Shown: piece by piece, positions 2,947 to 49,506 of the stretch
How the letters are laid out: every line of letters begins with the position of its first letter
How positions within the stretch are numbered: the stretch's first letter is position 1
From: Candidatus Nanohalarchaeota archaeon QJJ-9
Lineage (GTDB): Archaea; Nanohalarchaeota; Nanosalinia; Nanosalinales; Nanoanaerosalinaceae
Direction of reading: 5' to 3'
NCBI GenBank assembly: GCA_022865275.1
Contig: JALIDQ010000001.1
Location: 1 to 51,141, forward strand
Length of the DNA: 51,141 nt
Notes under the pieces: generated by a model
What the model was told of the DNA's origin: nothing
Seen by the model: the letters and a program-made list of their open reading frames with translations, nothing else
Database searches by the model: none
Translations under genes and position numbers: made by a program

Positions 2947-3109
2947 TGGACTCGCGGGGATTTGAACCCCGGGCCTCTTCCAATTTGGCTCTTGGTTCGG
3001 ACACGAACCTCGTGTCGAAGATCAAAGATCTTCTCCAACCGTTTTCCCTCAAAGATTCGGAAAAACGGTGTTGCCAAGGAAGCGTTCTGCCAAGCTGAAC
3101 TACGAGCCC
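2947..3109 (-). tRNA. tRNA-Ala (anticodon GGC) with 89-nt intron
   Basis: GGGCTCG-TA-GTTC-AGCTTGGCA-GAAC-G-CTTCC-TTGGCAA [intron 2982-3070] GGAAG-AGGCC-CGGGG-TTCAAAT-CCCCG-CGAGTCC-A. The G3:U70 alanine identity pair is present. Mature length 74 nt. Confidence 0.85.
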
Positions 3110-4649: not shown

Positions 4650-4834
4650 TGGACCCTCCGGGGTTCGAACCCGGGACCGCCGCCTATCTCACGACTGGCG
4701 TCCCAGTCGGCAGGACGGTCGCGTTCAAGGGAACGCTCCGACGCTCCGCGGCTGGTATGTTTCGCGCCACTTCTGAGTATATGGGCGCGATGTCCGTATA
4801 AGGACGGTGCTCTAACCAACTGAGCTAAGGGTCC
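4650..4834 (-). tRNA. tRNA-Ile (anticodon UAU) with 111-nt intron at 37/38
   Basis: GGACCCT-TA-GCTC-AGTTGGTTA-GAGC-A-CCGTC-CTTATA [intron 4686-4796] A-GGCGG-CGGTC-CCGGG-TTCGAAC-CCCGG-AGGGTCC-A. Loop CTTA can pair with intron-terminal TGAG, flanked by 3-nt bulges (bulge-helix-bulge-like). Confidence 0.7.
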
Positions 4835-5685: not shown

Positions 5686-7359
5686 ATGGCAAATTTAGGA
5701 GGACAACCAATCTTCATAATGTCGGAAGACGCTGAGCGTCAGACCGGCAAAAATGCTCAAGAAAACAACATAAACGCTTGTAAATCAGTTGCTAACGCGA
5801 TAAGGACTACTCTAGGTCCTAAAGGGATGGACAAGATGATGGTAGATTCTGTAGGCGACCTAGTCGTAACCAATGACGGAGTCACCATCCTCGACGAGAT
5901 GGAGCTAGAGCATCCCGCCGCCAAGATGATGGTAGAGATTGCAAAGACGCAGGACGAGGAGGTAGGCGATGGAACAACTACAGCAGTAGTCCTTGCAGGA
6001 GAGCTTCTCAAGAAGTCGGAAGACCTTCTTGATCAGGACATCCACCCCACAGTTATAAGCTCCGGTTACAGGCTAGCAAAGGAAAGAGCTCTGGAGGAGC
6101 TTAATCAGATAGCGGAAGACGTGAGCTTTGATGACCGTGAAAAGCTTGAATCGGTAGCGAAGACTGCTATGACAGGCAAGTCCGCAGAAGCTTCTAAGGA
6201 TTATCTAGCTTCAATAGCTGCGGACGCTGTAACCAGCATTGCGGACAGTCTTGACGGTAGCTTCGAAATCGACCGTGATCTTATAAAGGTTGTAAAAAGC
6301 CAGGGAGGCTCTGTAGACGATACAGAGCTAGTTGAGGGAGTTGTAATAGACAAGGAAAAAGTACATCCTGACATGCCTTCGAGGAAAAGCGAAGCGGATA
6401 TAGCGCTCCTTAACACTGCGATGGAGGTACAGGAGACCGAAACCTCTGCGGAGATTCAGATAAACGATCCGAATAAGCTTCAGGAGTTCGTCGACCAGGA
6501 AGAAGAAAGTCTTAAAGAGATGGTTGAACAGGTTAAGGAATCTGGTGCGGATGTTGTTCTATGCCAGAAAGGTATAGACGATATAGCCCAGCATTACCTT
6601 GCCAAGAATGATATCATGGCTGTTAGGAGGGTCAAAAAGTCTGATATGGAGAAGCTTGCAAAGGCTACAGGTGGAAGAGTGGTAACAAGCCTTACCGACC
6701 TAAGCCAGAGCGATCTAGGAAAAGCTGGAAATGTAGGCCAGGAGAACGTTTCAGGAGATAGCATGCTTTTCGTAGAGGACATAGAAGAAGCTGAATCCGT
6801 GACTATTGTTGTAAGGGGAGGAACTGAACATGTAGTGGACGAGATAGAGCGCGCGTTTGAAGATGCATTAGGAGGAATCGCCTCTGCTATAAGAGTAGGA
6901 AAGGTAGTCGGTGGAGGAGGCGCTCCAGAAGTCGAAGTCTCAAAGGAACTTAAAAACTACGCAGATAGAGTTGGCGGAAGAGAGCAGCTTGCGATAAACG
7001 CTTTCGCGGAAGCTTTGGAAATAGTGCCGAGGACTCTCGCGGAAAACGCAGGCCTGGACCCGATTGATATCCTTGTAGATCTGAGGAACAAGCATGAAGC
7101 AGGGGACAAATGGTCAGGAATTGATGTCTTTTCAGGTGAGGCTGACGATCTTTTCGACCGGGACGTGGTTGAACCGCTCCAGATTAAGACTCAGGCGGTA
7201 CAGTCCGCGTCTGAGGCGGCTGAGTTGATCCTCAGAATTGATGATGTAATCTCTGCCTCAGGTTTCGGCGGTGGAGAAGGTGGCGGTGAACCACCTGCCC
7301 CAGGCGGTGCCCCAGGAGGAGCTGGAGGAATGCCTGGTGGGATGGGAGGAATGATGTAA
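5686..7359 (+). CDS. ths: Thermosome subunit (group II chaperonin)
   Basis: [42 protein letters not shown] and C-terminal [11 protein letters not shown] tail. ATG 5686 is preceded by AGGTGA; the track GTG 5677 is an alternative. Confidence 0.95.
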
Positions 7360-25281: not shown

Positions 25282-25408
25282 GCCCCGTTAGCTCAGCTGG
25301 GAGAGCACGTCCTTGGTATCTCAGGACACACTCCGAACCCGATGCCAACGCGAGTTGAGTCTGAGAACAGAAAGGACGAGGTCCCGGGTTCGAATCTCGG
25401 ACGGGGCT
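25282..25408 (+). tRNA. tRNA-Thr (anticodon GGU) with 54-nt intron
   Basis: GCCCCGT-TA-GCTC-AGCTGGGA-GAGC-A-CGTCC-TTGGTA [intron 25319-25372] A-GGACG-AGGTC-CCGGG-TTCGAAT-CTCGG-ACGGGGC-T. Confidence 0.85.
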
Positions 25409-39329: not shown

Positions 39330-39626
39330 ATGCCAAGACCGAGGAGGAGGAGAAGGGTTAGAAGAAGACCTGCAGCGGATTTTTACAAGCCGGCAGGAAT
39401 ACCTAAACGCGAGCTTGAAGAGGTCAATCTTAAAGTAGAAGAAGTCGAGGCTCTGAGGTTGAAGGACGCGGAAGGAAGGTCTCAGGAGGATGCTGCTGAC
39501 GAGATGGATGTCTCGCAGTCTACTTTCCATAGGATTCTGACTTCTGCAAGGGAGAAGGTTGCGGAGGCTGTAACTGAAGGAATGGCTCTTAGAATAGAGG
39601 GGGGAAGCTATGAGATTGAGGAGTAG
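39330..39626 (+). CDS. DUF134 (UPF0251) putative DNA-binding protein
   Basis: MPRPRRRRRVRRRPAADFYKPAGIP N-terminus and HTH-like DEMDVSQSTFHRILTSAREKVAEA. Confidence 0.8.
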   Translation: MPRPRRRRRVRRRPAADFYKPAGIPKRELEEVNLKVEEVEALRLKDAEGRSQEDAADEMDVSQSTFHRILTSAREKVAEAVTEGMALRIEGGSYEIEE

Positions 39627-40062
39627 AATAGTTAGTATTGATTATGAAGGACTTAGAAGCTCGTTTCGCAGAGCTGCGAAGGGTTTATCTAACGCTTTAC
39701 CTATGATAGTCGGAGTCGTCTTCTTGATGGGGCTTGTGAAGAGTTTTGTACCCAAGAGTTTCTATATAGAATTTCTAGGCGGATCCTGGCTCCGATCAAG
39801 TCTTATGGGTTCTGGTGTAGGAAGCGTTCTCGCAGGTAACCCTGTTACCTCGTATATAATCGGAGGGGAGATGCTTTCTCAAGGGGTTGGTCTCTATGCG
39901 GTAACCTCGTTTATCCTTGCATGGGTTACAGTTGGAATAGTCCAGTTCCCAGCGGAATCTGAGGAGCTTGGAAGAAGGTTTGCTTTGACGAGAAATGTTT
40001 TTAGCTTTTTACTAGCTCTTGCAGGTGGTTTTGTAACCGTGGCTATCCTGGGGGTGCTATGA
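39610..40062 (+). CDS. Small polytopic membrane protein (permease half)
   Basis: 150 aa with about 4 TM helices. Overlaps both neighbours and sits within the DUF134/NifX-like cluster. Confidence 0.5.
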   Translation: MRLRSRIVSIDYEGLRSSFRRAAKGLSNALPMIVGVVFLMGLVKSFVPKSFYIEFLGGSWLRSSLMGSGVGSVLAGNPVTSYIIGGEMLSQGVGLYAVTSFILAWVTVGIVQFPAESEELGRRFALTRNVFSFLLALAGGFVTVAILGVL

Positions 40063-40580
40063 TGCTTTACAGCTATTTTAAGAGGAGCTTTAGGAAATGG
40101 GTTTTTGTAGCTATTGTAGGAGGTTTTTACGGCCTAGGATGGTTTTTAAGACCTGAAAAAGCTGTTTCAGCTTTTTACAGCTCTGTTGGAATTTTTAGAA
40201 ATATACTGCCTGTTTTTGTTCTGGTATTTGCTCTGATGGGAGTTACTAACTATTTTGTAAAGCCTAAGAAGCTTCTGAACTATTTTGGGAGTCATAGAAG
40301 TGTTAAGGGGTGGATTATAGCGTCTCTAGCAGGGATTATTTCGCATGGACCGATTTTTATGTGGTATCCGTGGCTTTCTGATCTTCAGGAGAAAGGAGTC
40401 GGCAACGGTTTTATAGCTACATTTCTATACAACCGGGCTGTGAAGGTTCCTCTGATCCCTTTTATGGCGCTCTATTTTGGGATAGACTTTGTTGCTGTAC
40501 TTACTCTTGTTATGATAGTTTTTTCCCTTTTTCAAGGAGTTTTAGTCGGCAAACTTTTAGAAAACAAAGGAGGTGATTGA
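40059..40580 (+). CDS. Small polytopic membrane protein (permease half)
   Basis: 173 aa with about 5 TM helices; ATGA overlap with the preceding gene. Confidence 0.5.
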   Translation: MMLYSYFKRSFRKWVFVAIVGGFYGLGWFLRPEKAVSAFYSSVGIFRNILPVFVLVFALMGVTNYFVKPKKLLNYFGSHRSVKGWIIASLAGIISHGPIFMWYPWLSDLQEKGVGNGFIATFLYNRAVKVPLIPFMALYFGIDFVAVLTLVMIVFSLFQGVLVGKLLENKGGD

Positions 40581-40985: not shown

Positions 40986-41115
40986 CCCTCCTTAGCTCAG
41001 GTCACAGATCAGAGATCTGTTCGATGACCTAACGCTGGGATTTTTTGCAAAATCCCTCCTTAGCTCAGTTGAAAACCTGGCGGTTTTCGGCTATGAGCTA
41101 ATACCGGGATCAAAA
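40986..41115 (+). repeat. Two extra copies of the tRNA-Tyr 5' end (CCCTCCTTAGCTCAG), each followed by a different hairpin spacer
   Basis: The exact 15-mer occurs at 40986-41000, 41054-41068 and 41116-41130 (the last is the start of the real tRNA). Spacer hairpins: GGTCA-CAGATC-AGA-GATCTG-TTCGA-TGACC (41000-41029) and GAAAACC-TGGC-GGTTTTC (41071-41088). Confidence 0.7.
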
Positions 41116-41220
41116 CCCTCCTTAGCTCAGCCTGGCAGAGCGTCCGCCTGTAGCACCAGCCGGATGCTATCCACTGTTTCAGCCAGCGGATCGTCCCCCG
41201 TTCAAATCGGGGAGGAGGGA
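41116..41220 (+). tRNA. tRNA-Tyr (anticodon GUA) with 31-nt intron
   Basis: CCCTCCT-TA-GCTC-AGCCTGGCA-GAGC-G-TCCGC-CTGTAG [intron 41154-41184] A-GCGGA-TCGTC-CCCCG-TTCAAAT-CGGGG-AGGAGGG-A. Has the C1:G72 pair characteristic of archaeal tRNA-Tyr. Confidence 0.9.
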
Positions 41221-41267
41221 TTTCTATTTTTTCCTTTGATTTTTTCTCGTTTTACAGGTTTTTCAGA

Positions 41268-41336
41268 GATTTGAACGACCTTGATTCTCTTCGAGAACCG
41301 TGGAGTGCAAATCGGGGAGGAGGGATTTCTATTTTT
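41268..41336 (+). repeat. Orphan copy of the tRNA-Tyr 3' end preceded by an inverted T-loop fragment and a TTCTC-TTC-GAGAA hairpin
   Basis: 29-nt exact direct repeat caaatcggggaggagggatttctattttt at 41203-41231 and 41308-41336. Upstream lie GATTTGAAC (inverted partner of GTGCAAATC) and TTCTCTTCGAGAA (41285-41297). Confidence 0.65.
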
Positions 41337-41959: not shown

Positions 41960-42310
41960 ATGGAAAGGCTAGACGGTTCTGACTGGATTGATAGAGAGAA
42001 CTACCGCAAGAAGATTGTTGCTCCAGAAGGGGAGCTTGAAGGTGAGGGAACGTTTATGCAGGTTGTTGAAGTTCCAAAGGGCAATCACGTTCCTCTCCAT
42101 AGGCACGATACTACGGAGGAGGTCTTCTACATCCTGCAGTCGGGTGGTAGGCTGGTTATCAACGGAGAGGAGCTTAGGCCTGAGGAAGGTGATGTTATTG
42201 TCTGCGAACCAGGAGACGAGCACGAGGTCTTCAACAACTCTGGCCAGACGTTCTGCATCCTTGTCTTTAAGATCAACTATGAGGAGGACGATACCGAGTG
42301 GCTGGAATAA
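41960..42310 (+). CDS. Cupin-domain protein
   Basis: HRHDTTEEVFYILQSGGRLVINGEE...GDVIVCEPGDEHEVFN two-motif cupin pattern. Confidence 0.7.
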   Translation: MERLDGSDWIDRENYRKKIVAPEGELEGEGTFMQVVEVPKGNHVPLHRHDTTEEVFYILQSGGRLVINGEELRPEEGDVIVCEPGDEHEVFNNSGQTFCILVFKINYEEDDTEWLE

Positions 42311-43182
42311 TGGAGCGGTATGAGGAGATTATACCGGACTTTGAGAGGTTCAAGGAGGTTGCTAAGACCCACCAGCCCCGAGAGGTCCGCGTAAATACTC
42401 TAAAGTCTTCTGTCTCTGAGGTAAAGAGGATGTTTGATAGGGAAGGTGTAGAATACGAGCAGCGGGACTGGAACCCTCGTTTCTTTAGGATTGATTCGTC
42501 CCCTGGGAAGCTTTTTTCTCACTGGCTGGGGAAGATTTACGGGCAGGAGTCTGTCTCAGGGATTCCTAGCCTTGCTTTGGAGCCGAAGCCTGGTGAGAAG
42601 GTGTTGGACTTGTGTGCGGCTCCTGGCTCTAAGACCACTCAGATCGCCGCGTTGATGGGTAATCAGGGCGAAATCTTTGCGAACGATAAGTCGAGTAATC
42701 GGTTGAGGAGTCTTGTGGCGAATGTCTACCGGACCGGTGCATTAAACGTTCAGACTTTTCAGAGGGATGCTAGAAACCTTCCTGAGGACTGGAAGTTTGA
42801 CAAGGTCCTTGTCGATGCTCCGTGTTCTGCTGAGGGAAATCTTCGGGAGAAGGAGGAGCTAAGACAGGGAGCTGATATTTCCCAGGTGGAAAGCCTTTCT
42901 GAGCTGCAGAAGGCTTTGCTTGGGAAGGGTTTCAGGCTTCTTAAGGAGGGAGGAACTCTGGTCTATTCTACCTGTACCTTTGCTCCTGAGGAGAATGAGG
43001 AGGTTGTTGCTGAGTTTTTGGGTGGGGCGGAACTTGTTGATCTGAGTTTTGATTTTTCTCATTCGAATGGCTTGACTTCGTGGAAAGGCGAGGCTTTTCC
43101 TTCTAAACTTGAGAACGCTGTAAGGGTCTACCCGCACCAGCTTGATTCTGGAGGGATTTTTGTTGCCAAGTTTGAGGGATGA
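42310..43182 (+). CDS. NOL1/NOP2/Sun-family RNA cytosine-C5 methyltransferase
   Basis: VLDLCAAPGSKTTQIAAL (SAM), DKVLVDAPCSAEG (motif IV PC) and LVYSTCTFAPEENE (motif VI TC). ATG 42310 overlaps the cupin stop (TAATG). Confidence 0.85.
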   Translation: MERYEEIIPDFERFKEVAKTHQPREVRVNTLKSSVSEVKRMFDREGVEYEQRDWNPRFFRIDSSPGKLFSHWLGKIYGQESVSGIPSLALEPKPGEKVLDLCAAPGSKTTQIAALMGNQGEIFANDKSSNRLRSLVANVYRTGALNVQTFQRDARNLPEDWKFDKVLVDAPCSAEGNLREKEELRQGADISQVESLSELQKALLGKGFRLLKEGGTLVYSTCTFAPEENEEVVAEFLGGAELVDLSFDFSHSNGLTSWKGEAFPSKLENAVRVYPHQLDSGGIFVAKFEG

Positions 43183-43603
43183 GCTTGTGGATTATTTCGA
43201 GGAGAGGTTTGGTGTGGAACCTTCTTTCTGGGATGACTATGCGGCGTACGAGAAGAGTGGTTCTCTGTGGGTCGTTTCTGAGGAGGTTAGTAGGAGGGAA
43301 GGTTTTGAGACTGCTGGAATCCGTGCTTTGAGAAGGCTTAGGATTGGCTTGAAGCCTACGACTTATGTTCTCCAGTTCCTTGGTGAGGAGCTGGGTAGTA
43401 ATGTGGTTGATTTGGATGAGGAGGAGTTTAGGCGCGTGGTTCTAAACAGAGAAGTTGTTAGTTCCGATTTTTCAAGAGGATATGTCGCGTTGAGGTTCCG
43501 CGGTGAGGTTGTGGGTTGCGGTCTTGTCTCTGGAGAAGGACTTGAGACCCAGGTTCCCAAGTCTCGTGCTGAGCTTCTTGAAGGGGTTTTTTCTCTGGAC
43601 TGA
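43142..43603 (+). CDS. Hypothetical protein coupled to the m5C methyltransferase (start uncertain)
   Basis: ORF overlaps the methyltransferase 3' end. Possible TTG/GTG starts lie between 43142 and 43190. No motif recognised; it may be an RNA-binding accessory domain split from the methyltransferase. Confidence 0.4.
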   Translation: MILEGFLLPSLRDELVDYFEERFGVEPSFWDDYAAYEKSGSLWVVSEEVSRREGFETAGIRALRRLRIGLKPTTYVLQFLGEELGSNVVDLDEEEFRRVVLNREVVSSDFSRGYVALRFRGEVVGCGLVSGEGLETQVPKSRAELLEGVFSLD

Positions 43604-43644: not shown

Positions 43645-43760
43645 TGCTGGCGGCCAGAGCGAGGGGGCAACACCTGTACCCATCCCGAACACAGAAGTAA
43701 AGTCCCTCAGCGATCTGGCCGGTACTGCCGGAAGGCGGGAAAACCAGGACGCTGCCAGCC
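43645..43760 (+). rRNA. rrf: 5S ribosomal RNA (not linked to 16S/23S in this window)
   Basis: GCTGGCGGCCAGAGCGAGGGGGCAACACCTGTACCCATCCCGAACACAGAAGTAAAGTCCCTCAGCG...GGACGCTGCCAGCC. Contains the conserved GTACCCATCCCGAACAC core, a terminal helix GCTGGC/GCCAGC, and a following TTTT. Confidence 0.95.
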
Positions 43761-43776: not shown

Positions 43777-44319
43777 TTATCTGACTGTTCTCTGCCAGTA
43801 TCCGAGGATTTTTTCCTGGTAGTGCTCTTCTATCTCTTCCCAGTGTTTGTCTAAGTAGTCTTCTACTTCTTTTTCGTAGAAGTTTGTCAGATGGAAGTTG
43901 TATATGTCGTCGACTGTCTTGGTCAGGTTGTAGTCTATGTCTTTCTGATATTTTTCCTGGACTGGTCTGAGAGCCAGGGATAGGTGTGTTCCTAGGAGTT
44001 GTTTGACGTCTTTTCTTAGATTGTTTTCTGTTAGGTCTAGGTTTCTTGGTTCTCTGTCTTTCTCCATTTTGTTTAGAAGTTCTACAAAGCTTGAATCTGC
44101 TCCTGTTGGCTCTTTCTGAAGTTCTAGGAGGGTTTTGTGGATGTAATGAGGGAAGTAATATTGTTTGACGTATTCTGCAGCTTTTTTTATGTCGCCGAGG
44201 TGGGTGTTATAGCCTCGTTTTTCGAGAGTCTCTGCGTATTTTTTTGTGAAGAATTCTCCTGGACTGTTTTCCATTTTTTCCTTGGCTTTTTTTATCTGGT
44301 CTTTCTCGATTTTTTCCAC
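43777..44319 (-). CDS. Hypothetical protein (180 aa)
   Basis: K/E-rich helical ORF with normal codon periodicity; no family recognised. Confidence 0.5.
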   Translation of the reverse strand: MEKIEKDQIKKAKEKMENSPGEFFTKKYAETLEKRGYNTHLGDIKKAAEYVKQYYFPHYIHKTLLELQKEPTGADSSFVELLNKMEKDREPRNLDLTENNLRKDVKQLLGTHLSLALRPVQEKYQKDIDYNLTKTVDDIYNFHLTNFYEKEVEDYLDKHWEEIEEHYQEKILGYWQRTVR

Positions 44320-44424: not shown

Positions 44425-44499
44425 GCCGAGATGGTGTAGTCCGGCCCATCATACCAGCCTGTCACGCTGGTGACGCGGGTTCAAATCCCGCTCTCGGCG
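44425..44499 (+). tRNA. tRNA-Asp (anticodon GUC), intronless
   Basis: Acceptor GCCGAGA/TCTCGGC, GGTGTAGTCCGGCCCATCAT D-region, anticodon arm CCAGC-CTGTCAC-GCTGG, T-arm GCGGG-TTCAAAT-CCCGC, discriminator G. Confidence 0.9.
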
Positions 44500-44774
44500 T
44501 CACTTCGTTCCTTGAAGAGTTTTTCAGGGGTTACAAGCTCTACTTCTCTTTCTTTCAGTTCTTCTGTCTTCTGGAAATTATAGTTGAGTGGAAAAATCTT
44601 ATGATCAGCAGCGGTCTGTACCCGTAAAATTCCTTGTCCAGACACCCAGTTAGTCTCATCAATTTTTTCTTCAACTATATAAGCATCATCTGAGAGCAGG
44701 GTGTCCTTCCAGCTTGAGTAGGTGTTTTCCCTGGACTGACAGTAGCCTCTGTACTGTTGACATACGGTTATCAT
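44481..44774 (-). CDS. Hypothetical protein whose last codons are antisense to the tRNA-Asp 3' end
   Basis: 97-aa ORF; the stop and final 6 codons overlap tRNA-Asp (44481-44499). A truncated, start-less homologue of its C-terminus (EELKEREIDLATPEKLLKDEINAESGV) follows the second att copy at about 46146-46250. Confidence 0.4.
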   Translation of the reverse strand: MITVCQQYRGYCQSRENTYSSWKDTLLSDDAYIVEEKIDETNWVSGQGILRVQTAADHKIFPLNYNFQKTEELKEREVELVTPEKLFKERSDAESGI

Positions 44775-44819
44775 AATTTATGTGTAAACGGTTTGCAAGG
44801 TTGAAAGAGAAAGACCTGC

Positions 44820-44912
44820 GGTATAATCTATACCTCAGTTGTGGTATAAAAAATACCAGAAGGTATTTAAATTTTGGTACAAAATATACCACCAGTTTGG
44901 TATAAAATATCC
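44820..44912. promoter_or_regulatory. Array of five GGTAT-N-ATACC-type palindromic/half-palindromic repeats in a divergent intergenic region
   Basis: GGTATAATCTATACC (44820-44834), GGTATAAAAAATACC (44843-44857), GGTATTTAAATTTT (44862-), GGTACAAAATATACC (44876-44890) and GGTATAAAATATCC (44899-44912). Start-to-start spacing is 23, 19, 14 and 23 nt. Confidence 0.45.
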
Positions 44913-45074
44913 GAGTTGTCTGATTGAGAGAGGTAGAAAAAGATTACAACTATAGAAGAGCACAAAAGGAAGATAAAAGAACATCTTGATGAAATAAACG
45001 AAGCCTTAGATATAGGAATCGATAAGAGACCGACTACGATTGGACTTCACACCTCTCTTTGCTCGACAGAGCTT

Positions 45075-45374
45075 TTGGAACTTTATCTTCACTTGGAGAA
45101 CAAGATAAGTATGGGAAAACAGATAAAGCATAACTGGTTCAAGAGACCAAAGGAAGACCAGAAAAAAGACCCTTTGCCAGATAGGAAAATAGGAGCGGAA
45201 TTTCCAAATAAGGAGAGGATTTATTCTCTTCTATATAGCATAGAGGAAGAAAGAGATAATTTGGTTTACGGAAGAGCGGAAGAGGAACAGACTAAAAAAG
45301 TGCTTAAATCTTTCCAAGAGTTGAAATCCATCTTAATTGAGAGAATAGAGAAAGAAGGTGTCGAACTTGAATAA
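45075..45374 (+). CDS. Hypothetical protein (possibly 5'-truncated)
   Basis: The frame is open from 44937 (KKITTIEEHKRKIKEHLDEINEALDIG...), but the first start-type codon is TTG 45075. Overlaps the nucleotidyltransferase start by 17 nt. Confidence 0.35.
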   Translation: MELYLHLENKISMGKQIKHNWFKRPKEDQKKDPLPDRKIGAEFPNKERIYSLLYSIEEERDNLVYGRAEEEQTKKVLKSFQELKSILIERIEKEGVELE

Positions 45375-45984
45375 ATACTCTCTGATAAGTTACGCAATAG
45401 AATATATATCCTTTATGTTGAGGAGCCAGGAATTAGAAAAGGATAATATCAAGAGTGTGATCTTGTTTGGATCAGTGGCGAGAGGAGATTTTGATAAGGA
45501 TAGTGATATTGACATCTTTATTGATCTTTATGATCTGGAAGATAGGGATAAAATTAAGGAAGAGGCCGAGCGAAGGCTTAAGAACTTTTACAAGTCCGAT
45601 AGTTTCCATAAATGGGAGCTGAGAGGGATTGATAACGAGATAAATTTGAAGATTGGAGATCTGGATAACTGGAAGTTAAAAGATTCAATTATAAGCGATG
45701 GAATTTCGCTCTACGGTTCCTATAAAGAAGTTCCTGAAGGAGATAGTTTTATCCTGTTCACCTTTGAACCGATCAAGCCTGTTAAAAAACGGAACAGAGT
45801 AATCAGAAATCTATTTGGAAGAAGCGATTACCCTTCCCAAGGTCTGGTTGAAGAAATGAATGGTGAAAAACTGACTTCCAGAAGTTTTGTAGTTCCTAAG
45901 AGGAACATGGAAGAAGTAAAGAAAGTACTGGATGATAACGATGTAGATTACTCTTTATACGAATTATACTCTTCACAGTTTTAG
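45358..45984 (+). CDS. Nucleotidyltransferase-domain protein (MNT-like)
   Basis: VILFGSVARGDFDKDSDIDIFI minimal-NTase signature (GS...D.D), followed by a C-terminal region of about 130 aa of unknown family. Confidence 0.75.
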   Translation: MSNLNKYSLISYAIEYISFMLRSQELEKDNIKSVILFGSVARGDFDKDSDIDIFIDLYDLEDRDKIKEEAERRLKNFYKSDSFHKWELRGIDNEINLKIGDLDNWKLKDSIISDGISLYGSYKEVPEGDSFILFTFEPIKPVKKRNRVIRNLFGRSDYPSQGLVEEMNGEKLTSRSFVVPKRNMEEVKKVLDDNDVDYSLYELYSSQF

Positions 45985-46144
45985 AGAAGCTTGAGGAAAG
46001 GGGGTCTAGTGAGTGGAAAGGGAAGTGGTCTGGTCAGGTATTATGTAGCCAAAGAGTAGAACTATGAACCGATTCTCCCCCCCAAATGAGTCAATTCCTG
46101 AGTCAGTTCTATTACTGATGCCTTCTCTTCGAGAAGTCTTGTAT

Positions 46145-46231
46145 CAAACCCCGCTCTCGGCGTTGATTTCATCCTTGAGAAGCTTTTCAGGGGTTGCAAG
46201 GTCTATTTCTCTTTCTTTCAGTTCTTCTGTG
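46145..46231 (+). repeat. att-like copy 2: tRNA-Asp 3' end plus about 70 nt of flanking arm
   Basis: An 87-nt alignment with 44482-44568 shows 14 mismatches by hand count (about 84 percent identity). It starts with caaaccccgctctcggcg versus caaatcccgctctcggcg. Confidence 0.7.
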
Positions 46232-47718
46232 AACCTGTTTTTGGAGATGCGTTTTTATTTAACTTTTCTTTCGTTGTTTCTCCACTGCAAGACTTTACCT
46301 GCTTTTTCTCTGATAGGGGCCCCAACGGTCGGAAAGAAAGAGTGTATTTGGTTCCACTTTTTCCCCTGAATTTACTGTATCTGTTTCCAACTTATCGTAA
46401 AGTTTTTATATACAAGATTCCAATAGATTCTGTATGGGTCTGGAAGATGAGATAGTTCGGCAGAATCCTCAGTGGAGAGGTGAAAAGCTTTCCAGGGGAA
46501 GTATCTGTAGGGAAAAGGAGGAGGAGATCAGAGAGGAGTTAGATGAGGATATTGTGACCGCTATAACAGGGATGAGAAGGGTGGGGAAGACGACTTTGAT
46601 GCAGAGGATTATAGATAGTTTAGAAGAGAGAGGTGAAAGAACATTCTACTATTCTTTCGATATAGACAAGGTTGAGGTAAGAGAACTATTGGAGACTTTC
46701 TTCCAGGAGATCGAGAACGAAAGCCCGGAACAAGCCGGTAGCGTGTACATCTTCCTGGACGAGGTGCAGAAAATCGAGGGCTGGAGCGACCATGTAAAGG
46801 CCTACCACGACCGTTACGAAAATCTGAAGTTTTTCGTGACCGGCTCTTCATCCGCAAATATCAGAAAAGGCGGTGGAGAAAGCCTGGTCGGAAGGATCAG
46901 CATCTACAGTTTAACGTCTTTCACATTCAGAGAGTTCCTGAGGTACCGCGGAATCAGTATACCGGAGAAAGACTTCGAAAAACTGGCTCTGCCTGAAAAC
47001 TCGAACCGGATAAAAGCAAAGCTACCGGAGTATCTGGAGACAGGAGGCTTCCCTGAGCTGATGGATAAGGAAGAGACTGTAAGGAGGGAAAGGCTGAACG
47101 ACATACTAGACCTGACGCTTTACAGGGATATTGTGGAGCTCTTTGGAGTAGGAAGACCAGAACTGCTCGAGGCAATATTCAAGTCGATAACTGAGACCAG
47201 CGGAAACACGGTAAACTACAATAAGCTCGGTAAAAACCTGGATGCGCAGTATAAAACAGTCAGAAAGTATGTTGATGCGCTGGAACAATCATTTCTGATA
47301 GAAAAAAGCCGGAGACTACAGAACAACAAGCTACAGGAATACAAGAAAAGGCCGAAAATCTATGCGGGAGAACACAGCTTCTGCTCACTTCAAGGAACAA
47401 AGAAAGGCCTGAAAGCAGAGACAGCAGCCTACAACCACCTCAAAACAAAAGGAGAAACAGGTTACTGGCGCAAAAAACAGGACGAAGTCGATATAATCCT
47501 CAAGCAAGGTGAGAATCTGAAGGCGTTTGAGGTCAAATACAGGAACCAGGAAGGAAAAACAGAGTTCAACAGCTTTAAAAAAGAGTGCCCGGAAGCGGAA
47601 ACATTCCAGATAACCAAAAACACGCTGGACAGAGACAAAGACAAAATACCGCTCTGGCTACTACTTGTACATATCTAAAGAAACCGCTGCAGACCTCTGC
47701 AAGCCTAGATATTTATGT
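46163..47718. mobile_element. Putative integrated-element remnant 2 at tRNA-Asp (no integrase present)
   Basis: Bounded by att-like copy 2 and copy 3 (47719-47736). Cargo is the AAA_14/DUF4143-type ATPase. Confidence 0.35.
46434..47678 (+). CDS. AAA_14/DUF4143-type ATPase
   Basis: Walker A ITGMRRVGKTTLMQ, Walker B VYIFLDEVQKIEGW, and a C-terminal DUF4143-like region with a nuclease-like tail (EVDIILK...FEVKY). Confidence 0.8.
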   Translation: MGLEDEIVRQNPQWRGEKLSRGSICREKEEEIREELDEDIVTAITGMRRVGKTTLMQRIIDSLEERGERTFYYSFDIDKVEVRELLETFFQEIENESPEQAGSVYIFLDEVQKIEGWSDHVKAYHDRYENLKFFVTGSSSANIRKGGGESLVGRISIYSLTSFTFREFLRYRGISIPEKDFEKLALPENSNRIKAKLPEYLETGGFPELMDKEETVRRERLNDILDLTLYRDIVELFGVGRPELLEAIFKSITETSGNTVNYNKLGKNLDAQYKTVRKYVDALEQSFLIEKSRRLQNNKLQEYKKRPKIYAGEHSFCSLQGTKKGLKAETAAYNHLKTKGETGYWRKKQDEVDIILKQGENLKAFEVKYRNQEGKTEFNSFKKECPEAETFQITKNTLDRDKDKIPLWLLLVHI

Positions 47719-47736
47719 CAAATCCCGCTCTCAGCG
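47719..47736 (+). repeat. att-like copy 3 (18 nt of the tRNA-Asp 3' end) followed by a T-run
   Basis: caaatcccgctctcagcg versus caaatcccgctctcggcg in the tRNA (1 mismatch). It is followed by ctttttttttgggg, which looks like the original tRNA terminator flank. Confidence 0.55.
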
Positions 47737-47799
47737 CTTTTTTTTTGGGGAAAAAGATTAAATATAGGAGTTTTTCATCTTATTTTGTTTGTGATATCA

Positions 47800-49506
47800 A
47801 TGGATTTTGATATCTCTAAGATGCTTTTGGTTTCAGCGATATTAGTGTTTCTATGCTCCAGTGCAGCTGCTTTTGCAGGCGGTGACGGCTCCTCTTCTGA
47901 TCCCTATGAGATTTCTAACTGTACAGAACTCCAGGATATGCAGAACGATTTAGATGCTCATTATGAGTTGGTGGATGATGTTAACTGTTCTAATACTTCT
48001 AGTTGGAACGGTGGCTCCGGATTCAACCCTATAGGTAGTAGTGGCAGTCGGTTCTACGGTTCTTTGAATGGGCAAAACCACATCGTTGACCAGCTATATA
48101 TTAACCGCGGCCACGACCATGTTGGGCTTATTGGATACACTCAGTATTGCGAGGTTAAAAATATCGGTTTGACGAATGTAGATATTACCGGCAAAGGTGA
48201 TACAGGTGGTGCTTTGGGAGTGAATAATAGGGGCACTATTTCTAACATTTACACCACAGGCAATGTAGTCGGCGAACATCGGGTGGGTGGTTTGGTCGGA
48301 ACCATCTACGGTAGTGGTGTTTATTCTAGTTTTTCTACGGGTAGTGTTTCCGGCGACTCTAGTGTGGGTGGTTTGGTCGGACAAAACAGCGGCAGTGTTT
48401 CTGATAGTTATGCGGTGGGTAGTTTGGTTGGATACAATGATGGAGGTAGTGTTGATGGTTCTGCTTTGTCTACTTCTGAGATGCAGGGTTCGGCTGCTGA
48501 AAGTAATATGAGTAGTTTGGATTTCACCAGTAAGTGGACTACAGTTTTATCTTCTGATTCTGATGCGACTTCGGATGGTTATCCGATTCTCCAGGGCTCG
48601 GATAGGCAGAGTCAGCTTGAGGCGCAGGGTATTTATACTGTACCGGATTCTTCTTCTCCTGTTTTTTCTGGTGTTTATGATGATTCTGGTGGGTCTGTGT
48701 TTGTAGGGGCGGTTGTTAATGTTTCTGTGTATTGGGAGGATTCTGTTTCTAATCTTTCGGAAGGATTTTTCAAGCATAATGGTTCGGGTTCTTGGTCTGT
48801 CTCGGATTCTGTTTCTTTTAACGGTACGAATGAGTCTTGGTATAATGTTTCTATTAATACTTCGGATCTTGGTGGTAGGACTTTGTGTTGGGTTCAGGAG
48901 GTGAATGATACGGTTGGGAATATGGATAGTTCGATGGATGTATCTGAGAATTGTTTTGATGTTAGGGAATATGGTTCTACTATTTCGATTTTGGGTGAGG
49001 AGCCTGTTGGTGGTTCTGTTGTGGACAGCGATACAGAAATTTCTGTTGAGGTCTTTGATAGTCAGGCTTCTACTTTAGATGTGTGGTTTTTTGATGGTTC
49101 TGGGGGTTTTTTGGGTTCTGATTTGGGTGTTGTGAATGGTTCTCGAGCTTCTTGGTTTTGGGATGGTTTGGAGGGTAATTCTTCCTATAGCTGGTTTGTG
49201 AATGTTTCGAATGGTAAAGGTAATTATACTTCTGAGGTTTTTGGTTTTGAGACTGGTTTGGGGGTTGAGTTGTCTTTTGAGGATGTTTCGGATCGTGAGT
49301 CTGGTTTTAATGTGTATAGTAATGCTTCGGGTTCTTGGGAGAGGGTTCATAGTTTTGAGTCTCAGAATGTTGGTGGTACTGGGCGGAGGTCTGTTAGTTT
49401 TATTGATGAGACTTTGTCTGAGGAGAAATATGCGTGTTATAGTGTTGCTGCGTTTAATGGGGCTGGTGAGTCTGGGCGGTCGCAGGAGGCGTGTTTGAGT
49501 CCTTAA
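47800..49506 (+). CDS. Secreted GLUG-motif adhesin-like protein with a C-terminal module shared with 25468-29574
   Basis: Signal peptide MDFDISKMLLVSAILVFLCSSAAAFA. GLUG-type repeats RVGGLVGTIYG, SSVGGLVGQNSG and VGSLVGYNDG. The C-terminal 170 aa are homologous to the giant protein C-terminus. The track start at 47665 reads through the att copy and is rejected. Confidence 0.8.
   Translation: MDFDISKMLLVSAILVFLCSSAAAFAGGDGSSSDPYEISNCTELQDMQNDLDAHYELVDDVNCSNTSSWNGGSGFNPIGSSGSRFYGSLNGQNHIVDQLYINRGHDHVGLIGYTQYCEVKNIGLTNVDITGKGDTGGALGVNNRGTISNIYTTGNVVGEHRVGGLVGTIYGSGVYSSFSTGSVSGDSSVGGLVGQNSGSVSDSYAVGSLVGYNDGGSVDGSALSTSEMQGSAAESNMSSLDFTSKWTTVLSSDSDATSDGYPILQGSDRQSQLEAQGIYTVPDSSSPVFSGVYDDSGGSVFVGAVVNVSVYWEDSVSNLSEGFFKHNGSGSWSVSDSVSFNGTNESWYNVSINTSDLGGRTLCWVQEVNDTVGNMDSSMDVSENCFDVREYGSTISILGEEPVGGSVVDSDTEISVEVFDSQASTLDVWFFDGSGGFLGSDLGVVNGSRASWFWDGLEGNSSYSWFVNVSNGKGNYTSEVFGFETGLGVELSFEDVSDRESGFNVYSNASGSWERVHSFESQNVGGTGRRSVSFIDETLSEEKYACYSVAAFNGAGESGRSQEACLSP

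Follow-up and report, generated by a model that had tools for sequence, protein, structure and literature searches.

The 51,141-nt stretch of DNA analyzed here (the window, which is an entire contig) harbors an intact gene for tRNA-Asp(GTC), the last 19 nt of which recur twice downstream and bracket two gene-bearing segments. We lean, with modest confidence and judging from sequence, toward the view that this locus comprises two small and degraded, integrase-less integrated elements arranged in tandem at the tRNA gene's 3' end. As is the case for elements targeted to tRNA genes, direct repeats nearly identical to a part of the tRNA bracket the insert, and one of them is located inside the intact tRNA.

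A preliminary description of this DNA had reported that the last 18 nt of tRNA-Asp, CAAATCCCGCTCTCGGCG, recur from 46145 and from 47719 with one mismatch each, and these positions were verified (44482-44499 with no mismatch; 46145-46162 and 47719-47736 with one mismatch each). In the repeat search over the contig, three matches to this 18-mer stood against 0.07 expected, and none of 100 shuffles reached three. Local alignment revealed one further 5' T common to the copies, and the true core is therefore the 19-nt sequence TCAAATCCCGCTCTCGGCG. The complete tRNA is present at copy 1 only. Copies 1 and 2 can be aligned without gaps over 87 nt at 85% identity (44481-44567 against 46144-46230), after which the similarity is lost abruptly, which fits the pattern expected where an arm meets cargo. 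The arm of about 70 nt at about 84% identity that had been proposed for these two copies was thus measured as 68 nt beyond the core, and the Smith-Waterman score of the shared right arms corresponds to a z of 24.7 against shuffles. The right arm of copy 3 was unlike that of copy 1 or copy 2 in the local alignment, the core being all that they have in common. The T-run noted earlier after copy 3 is a C followed by nine T residues; a T9 run occurs directly 3' of this last copy only. The run is likely the original terminator of tRNA-Asp and marks the point where the host flank resumes, and the gene beyond it encodes a GLUG-repeat surface protein (613-aa open reading frame [ORF] with the Glug motif). 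An assembly artefact, which had been named as a possibility, is countered by a Logan contig (L001; SRR18572986) corresponding to window positions 44462-48353, in which the same three copies and the same content were found with two single-nucleotide polymorphisms (SNPs), one in each large gene. As this independently assembled contig has the same layout, the arrangement of the repeats is confirmed to be neither a product of chance nor an artefact of one assembly. The positions of these and the other features are summarized in Table 1.

Table 1. Repeats, arms, genes and small palindromes of the tRNA-Asp locus, and tRNA genes with or without repeated ends (positions refer to the window unless a locus is named).
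Feature	Position	Strand	Remarks
tRNA-Asp(GTC), intact	44425-44499	+	Rfam tRNA 62.9 bits; ARAGORN anticodon GTC
Core copy 1, attL-like	44481-44499	+	last 19 nt of tRNA-Asp
Segment 1	44500-46143		
Right (P'-like) arm, segment 1	44500-44567	+	68 nt, ~82% identical to 46163-46230; T5 run at 44520-44524
ORF97, 97 aa	44481-44774	-	passes through the arm into the tRNA end
Palindrome array	44816-44915	.	four or five imperfect 15-bp palindromes GGTAYA-N3-5-TATACC, between divergent ORF97 and ORF99
ORF99, 99 aa	45075-45374	+	without assigned family
Nucleotidyltransferase (NTase), 208 aa	45358-45984	+	PF01909 (NTP_transf_2), E = 1.1e-10
Hairpin CTTCTC-TTC-GAGAAG	46122-46136	+	ends 8 nt before CAAAC of core copy 2; contains 13-mer TTCTCTTCGAGAA
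Core copy 2, attR of segment 1 = attL of segment 2	46144-46162	+	TCAAACCCCGCTCTCGGCG, 1 mismatch
Segment 2	46163-47717		
Right arm, segment 2	46163-46230	+	partner of 44500-44567
ORF97-tail remnant, start-less, 36 codons	46144-46254	-	19 of 28 residues identical, stop at same place; tblastn E = 2e-8
AAA_14 + DUF4143 ATPase (COG1373 type), 414 aa	46434-47678	+	PF13173 E = 9.6e-33, PF13635 E = 1.3e-22
Palindrome CTGCAGACCTCTGCAA	47687-47702	.	downstream of the ATPase stop codon and 17 nt ahead of CAAAT in core copy 3
Core copy 3, attR-like array end	47718-47736	+	TCAAATCCCGCTCTCAGCG, 1 mismatch
C+T9 run	47737-47746	+	directly 3' of copy 3
tRNA-Ala, intron-containing	3109 to 2947	-	exact second copy of its last 23 nt, GGGTTCAAATCCCCGCGAGTCCA, at 2880 to 2858
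tRNA-Tyr, intron-containing	41116-41220	+	exact 29-nt repeat at 41203-41231 and 41308-41336 (3' end and trailer)
tRNA-Tyr of an Asbonarchaeaceae metagenome-assembled genome (MAG)	L002:1-225		32-nt repeat at 114-145 and 190-221; upstream 5'-end copy too
tRNA-Tyr of a Nanohaloarchaea MAG	L006:6745-7030		40-nt repeat at 6863-6902 and 6990-7029; upstream 5'-end copy too
Five intron-bearing tRNA genes	1971-2064, 2947-3109, 4650-4834, 25282-25408, 41116-41220		

All four genes of the preliminary description were recovered in the two segments, namely the 97-aa ORF on the minus strand, the 99-aa ORF, the NTP_transf_2 protein (208 aa) and the AAA_14 and DUF4143 protein (414 aa). Segment 1, with a guanine-cytosine (GC) content of 37.8%, is poorer in GC than all other 1.6-kb stretches of the contig (mean 44.5%, standard deviation 2.0; lowest 0.5% of windows), and its DNA had no relative in plasmids. 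The last 28 residues of ORF97 are encoded by the shared arm and the core, and its stop codon, TGA, corresponds on the opposite strand to a TCA of the tRNA T-loop. No match to ORF97 was found in Pfam, PHROG, NCBIfam or PADLOC, and a word search among 5.8 billion proteins returned ORF97 itself only. The exhaustive HMMER search yielded just two weak matches of a repeat type (E values of 4.6e-8 and 4.5e-5), one of them an RTX-repeat protein and the other a protein with sub-threshold FN3 hits in Pfam. Residues ~7-68 of ORF97 weakly resemble the internal repeat, and four repeats can be aligned with the pattern W.D....G(F/Y).(I/V)..K......W. We tentatively consider ORF97 a piece of a repeat-containing protein fused to arm-encoded codons. 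An orphan with two weak repeat-type matches is more likely a fragment, and ORF97 is probably not a genuine gene of the element. The palindrome array between ORF97 and ORF99 comprises a 40-nt direct repeat spaced 56 nt and the inverted repeats I1-I4, and could be an operator array or iterons.

The frame of ORF99 is open from 44934, yet the first start codon occurs only at 45075; the Logan gene caller starts this ORF at the ATG at 45111, giving a protein of 87 aa. ORF99 overlaps the start of the NTase gene by 17 nt, which suggests that the two form an operon. The NTase consists of an N-terminal domain of the MNT/Pol-beta type followed by ~120 C-terminal residues without a family match. It scored 32 bits against the NCBIfam model of MntA (cut-off of 60), its match to PDC-S09 of PADLOC is confined to the NTase motif, and no match was found in the PDB, phages or viral contigs. 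Upstream of the NTase, no HEPN match was found in ORF99, even when extended.

The ATPase is the sole gene of segment 2, in which the start-less, decayed copy of the ORF97 tail that had been described was also found, with 36 codons and the same stop. Both Pfam domains of the ATPase, an AAA_14 P-loop domain at the N-terminal side and DUF4143 at the C-terminal side, scored above the cut-off (113 bits for PF13173 and 81 bits for PF13635), and its C-terminus bears a YraN/UPF0102-like nuclease-fold signature. The protein matched PDC-S01 (PDLC04787) of PADLOC over its full length (residues 24-405; E = 1.8e-65). PDC-S01 is a candidate defence system and the defence role of the ATPase is accordingly putative. 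The earlier assignment of both cargo types to defence or accessory families was borne out by these PADLOC matches to defence-candidate models, full-length for PDC-S01 and restricted to the NTase motif for PDC-S09. The palindrome at 47687 is unrelated in sequence to the hairpin at 46122.

Orthologues of the ATPase with 70-80% identity were found in MAGs of Nanohalobium and Nanohaloarchaea, the one at 80% belonging to a Candidatus (Ca.) Nanohalobium MAG. These orthologues of other Nanohalarchaeota reside in five unrelated neighbourhoods, often beside toxin-antitoxin genes; one follows enolase, one is next to a DUF433 gene, and one has its start ~400 nt away from a contig-terminal tRNA fragment, on the 5' side of the latter. 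A 58%-identical homologue adjoins an RHH/ParE pair, and the family is present on 317 plasmid records. As the orthologues occur in unrelated neighbourhoods, the ATPase gene is mobile in evolution, which does not in itself indicate the route by which it moves. No flanking tRNA-end repeats were found in eight loci with ATPase homologues at 43-80% identity (L109-L115, L117 and L118). In L117:7764-11236, from a 663-kb ENA contig, a 57%-identical homologue is clustered with a HepT-MNT pair, a further Pol-beta-like NTase, two additional DUF4143 proteins and NUDIX genes. The cluster looks like an accessory or defence island, and no tRNA is nearby.

Given what is observed (three repeat copies, a shared arm, an intact tRNA, the families of the cargo, a compositionally distinct segment 1 and no recombinase), we infer how and in which order the elements integrated, and by what type of recombinase, as follows. 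Circular DNAs whose attachment (att) site, attP, had a core of 19 bp matching positions 55-73 of the tRNA exactly would have recombined with the tRNA gene through a site-specific recombinase, most likely of the tyrosine type. With every integration, the tRNA would have been preserved and a further copy of the core deposited at the distal end, and the second integration would have used an att site made by the first. The outcome would be the order tRNA/core 1, segment 1, core 2, segment 2, core 3 and terminator, with two elements sharing related P' arms (68 nt) and differing in cargo. The recombinase gene would have been deleted later, or would never have been aboard, the enzyme acting in trans. 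The segments would now represent captured genes, in the sense of the archaeal "gene capture" reportedly described by She et al. in 2001. Both the loss of the start of ORF99 and the fragment-like nature of ORF97 fit decay. Integrated elements commonly leave pieces of tRNA behind, and those of archaea can become trapped once the integrase has been lost or split (PMC9897764, PMC8371274). Tyrosine integrases are encoded by spindle viruses of nanohaloarchaea, and a single integrated provirus has been reported for the group (bioRxiv 10.1101/2025.02.15.638363); a source of a recombinase acting in trans is therefore plausible.

Several points weigh against tandem integration. The preliminary description had written the array as B-O-P1' ... 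P1-O-P2' ... P2-O-B', with which the intact tRNA, the terminal T-run and the shared arm agree, but the kinship of the two elements is argued by one 68-nt arm. The left arms of copies 2 and 3 displayed no mutual similarity in the local alignment, and segment 2, with a GC content of 44.2%, is host-like in composition. To our knowledge, 1.6 kb per segment is far below the size of any autonomous integrative element. There is a mismatch in each copy outside the tRNA, and thus nothing indicates recent activity. As had been stated before, a recombinase gene is absent: no recombinase, transposase or Cas1 domain was detected in the segment ORFs or in the scanned contig ORFs of at least 150 aa. Full-length relatives with an integrase and the same arm, which had been suggested as a search target, did not turn up. 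The viral, metagenome and genome collections yielded neither an empty site nor an excised circle, nor an integrase-bearing relative that has the core or the arm. In the viral contigs, there were 0 matches to the core plus arm or to the Asp, Tyr and Ala cores. A scan of the metagenome contigs for the core gave 26 loci, all unrelated to tRNA-Asp, and the genome contigs, approached via the neighbouring RsmB, contained no relative closer than 63% identity and no tRNA-Asp synteny. Finally, the tRNA-Tyr repeats described below, which occur in three genera and are identical to the local tRNA, are unexpected for a passive scar, and another process may operate at tRNA ends in this lineage.

Every tRNA gene in the window was checked for repeats of its ends. 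The idea of an integration hot spot in the preliminary description gained strength from this survey, as two other tRNA genes of the contig, those for tRNA-Ala and tRNA-Tyr, possess a similar repeat of the 3' end. In tRNA-Ala, a 66-nt spacer with the hairpin GATTCTC-TGGC-GAGAATC inside precedes the repeat, and a T-run follows the second copy only. The tRNA-Tyr repeats bracket a 76-nt spacer, which is significantly similar to that of tRNA-Ala (z = 5.5) and holds GATTTGAAC, a perfect 9-nt complement of the T-loop region of the same tRNA. Upstream, the first 15 nt of tRNA-Tyr are found twice more as exact copies (40986-41000 and 41054-41068), and a hairpin follows each of them. The whole 366-nt region of tRNA-Tyr has a folding z of -4.8, and no credible known RNA family was found in its flank. 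ARAGORN without the intron search miscalls this tRNA as a selenocysteine (SeC) tRNA. Within the window, the 13-mer TTCTCTTCGAGAA has just two occurrences, which precede the Tyr repeat by 10 nt and copy 2 of the Asp core by 9 nt, and 1.5 Mb of other fetched loci contain none; among the four left arms, a shared 13-mer arose in ~1.5e-4 of composition-matched shuffles. As the shared 13-mer is this rare, the right end of segment 1 is related to that of the tRNA-Tyr mini-insert. The similarity between the right arms at tRNA-Asp and the mini-inserts was not significant.

The tRNA-Tyr layout was also found in two MAGs of the lineage (L002 and L006 in Table 1). The repeat in L006 tracks the different acceptor sequence of that genome, that is, repeat and tRNA co-vary. 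The spacers of L002 and L006 are similar to each other (z = 7.8), and GGAGATTTGATAG-like motifs are common to the spacers. The fetched loci, 1.39 Mb from many phyla, contained 52 tRNAs, and just 5 of them had a repeated 3' end. In four loci, 8-9 nt separate the end of the hairpin from CAAAT; taken singly the hairpins are weak, two of the six folding no better than shuffles. The presence of this arrangement in other genera, with co-varying repeats, is hard to reconcile with passive scars, and because of this recurrence and co-variation not every tRNA-end repeat in the lineage need be one.

The same data invite an explanation in which the tRNA-end repeats belong to a maintained module of the lineage, comprising a T-rich stretch and a motif of the GGAGATTTGA type, followed by a small hairpin, ~8 nt and a copy of the tRNA 3' end, located downstream of some Nanohalarchaeota tRNAs. 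Such a module would be a mini-element mobilized in trans or a signal for processing or recombination, and the cassettes at tRNA-Asp would have recombined into it or been carried by it. We hold this to be somewhat unlikely, having weighed on the one side the exactness of the 23-nt and 29-nt repeats of tRNA-Ala and tRNA-Tyr around mutually similar inserts of just 66 and 76 nt, the same Tyr layout in L002 and L006 with similar inserts and a repeat that follows the acceptor, the restriction of such repeats to so few of the tRNAs surveyed, the extra exact 5'-end copies upstream of tRNA-Tyr, the distance of 8-9 nt between the hairpin and CAAAT in four loci, and the 13-mer hairpin that also appears in the left arm of Asp copy 2. 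On the other side are the weakness of the hairpins, the lack of significant likeness between the Asp right arms and the mini-inserts, the different left arm of copy 3 and a sample of three genomes; moreover, one element family that integrated repeatedly and then decayed could leave similar remnants, and there is no known mechanism by which cassettes are inserted at a module of this kind. More speculatively, and in our judgement unlikely, the ends of Nanohalarchaeota tRNAs would host an undescribed family of ~50-110-nt modules, made up of the motif, the hairpin, ~8 nt and the exact local tRNA 3' end, and at tRNA-Tyr also of 5'-end hairpin copies upstream. Persisting across genera and co-varying with the tRNA, these could be non-autonomous, integrative mini-elements that repeated recombination homogenises, or functional RNA or DNA signals. 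The Asp segments would then be their cargo-loaded versions, and the modules a platform for gene capture without a resident recombinase.

Alternatively, a single integration at tRNA-Asp could have been followed by unequal or ectopic recombination, which either duplicated the 87-nt block of attL and arm inward or joined two islands, the middle copy being secondary. That the arm is common to copies 1 and 2 only, that the duplicated block (core and 68 nt) is contiguous and that no second recombinase left a trace would all agree with this history. We nonetheless find it quite improbable, as a block at 85% identity with conservative changes would have to descend from an old duplication, as the GC contents of the segments (37.8% against 44.2%) favor separate origins, and as the left arm of copy 2 has the hairpin motif at the place equivalent to that of the Tyr repeat, which is expected of a genuine element end. 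Chance similarity or an assembly artefact is scarcely credible: apart from the shortness of the 19-nt core, nothing speaks for it, and the shuffles, the extension of the repeat to 87 nt and the SRR18572986 assembly, identical in structure with 2 SNPs, speak against it. A core of 19 nt is also shorter than typical assembler k-mers, which makes repeat-induced chimerism unlikely.

Among the systems already known, the tandem integrated elements that we favor come closest to the integrase-less remnants of archaeal "gene capture" and the tandem mobile genetic elements of tRNA genes (PMC8371274), in which tRNA 3' repeats likewise flank foreign DNA, the tRNA is intact, several inserts share a site, and the recombinase is lost while the cargo is kept. 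The locus differs from these remnants in the 1.6 kb per segment, in having no recognisable int(N) or int(C) fragments and in its host, a DPANN nanohaloarchaeon, a group for which one integrated element has been reported (bioRxiv 10.1101/2025.02.15.638363); its core of 19 nt compares with ~44 nt in PYG1 (PMC9897764). Bacterial genomic islets and elements of the integrative and mobilizable (IME) or cis-mobilizable (CIME) type similarly consist of att-flanked cargo without a recombinase of its own and accrete in tandem at a tRNA gene, but at this archaeal locus no helper element and no evidence of excision were found. The cargo itself resembles the PDC-S01/COG1373 ATPases and MNT-type NTases of toxin-antitoxin and defence islands, the ATPase over its full length and the NTase in its catalytic motif. 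The NTase differs from them in scoring below the MntA cut-off, in having no recognisable HEPN partner and in its extra C-terminal region of 120 aa; a type VII toxin-antitoxin system would pair the MNT adenylyltransferase with a HEPN (RX4-6H) toxin.

Other candidate systems were rejected. As in the "suicidal" integrase elements of the SSV, pTN3 and pT26-2 type, an ORF on the opposite strand (ORF97) enters the tRNA 3' end at the place of int(N), but its frame stops inside the core in both copies and cannot cross attP, and hence ORF97 is not the int(N) half of an SSV-type integrase. In addition, no integrase domain was found in ORF97 and no int(C) at either right end; the left sides of copies 2 and 3, the expected place of int(C), give rise to no minus-strand ORF. 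Casposons at tRNA-Pro 3' ends share the tandem inserts and the short repeats, and integrons share cassettes of one or a few genes, each closing in a small palindrome. The locus has no Cas1, no family B polymerase and no terminal inverted repeats, and its repeats measure 19-87 nt (the 19 nt plus arm), not 14-15 bp like the target duplications of casposons. Neither IntI on the contig nor attI or attC was found, the repeated unit is a tRNA end, and the palindromes before copies 2 and 3 are mutually unrelated, which speaks against an integron cassette array. A reading of the second repeat copies as hidden, split or pseudo-tRNAs is not supported either, as those in the window have no T-stem partner and the tRNA-sized unit of L002 has no tRNA match in Rfam.

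As a remnant of integrated elements, the tRNA-Asp locus is ordinary and follows a familiar pattern. It documents the horizontal capture of genes, a defence-candidate ATPase and an NTase operon, at a tRNA gene of a DPANN symbiont with a reduced genome, and integrated elements are barely described for Nanohalarchaeota in the literature searched. Its wider value resides in the recurring tRNA-end repeats of the lineage, including the Tyr arrangement in three genera. Should these repeats prove to be a functional signal or an active mini-element, they would inform two questions, namely how archaeal tRNA genes come to be disrupted and rebuilt, and how ultra-small genomes take up accessory genes.

The housekeeping genes on the contig are archaeal and include those for the thermosome, the large and small subunits of replication factor C (RFC), class I lysyl-tRNA synthetase (LysRS), NucS, type IV pili and 5S rRNA. 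The RsmB-like methyltransferase neighbouring tRNA-Asp was 63% identical to a protein of a Candidatus Asbonarchaeaceae MAG, its best match in the genome contigs; Asbonarchaeaceae is a family within Ca. Nanohalarchaeota of the DPANN group. Based on this match and on the 80% identity between the segment 2 ATPase and its Ca. Nanohalobium orthologue, the host is a Nanohalarchaeota-like DPANN archaeon without a close sequenced relative. The two hypothetical proteins closest to tRNA-Asp had no homologue among 5.8 billion proteins, and exact-protein look-ups of the genes flanking the locus gave no record.

Some further observations concern the remainder of the contig. Introns, some of them large, are present in five of its eight tRNA genes, which range from 94 to 185 nt in length, and ARAGORN in its default mode overlooks four of these five. 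A solitary 5S rRNA gene is located at 43646-43760, ~660 nt upstream of tRNA-Asp, and an orphan ORF of 180 aa lies between the two on the minus strand (43777-44319). At 42298-43603, the gene for the RsmB/F-type methyltransferase (294 aa) shares 41 nt, read in another frame, with the next ORF (153 aa, PUA-like domain); this could reflect a frameshift that split a single gene or a true two-gene arrangement. The adjacent ORFs of 150 and 173 aa at 39610-40580 each align with one and the same N-terminal portion of the profile for ArsP_1 permeases and could represent a split, duplicated or two-part permease.

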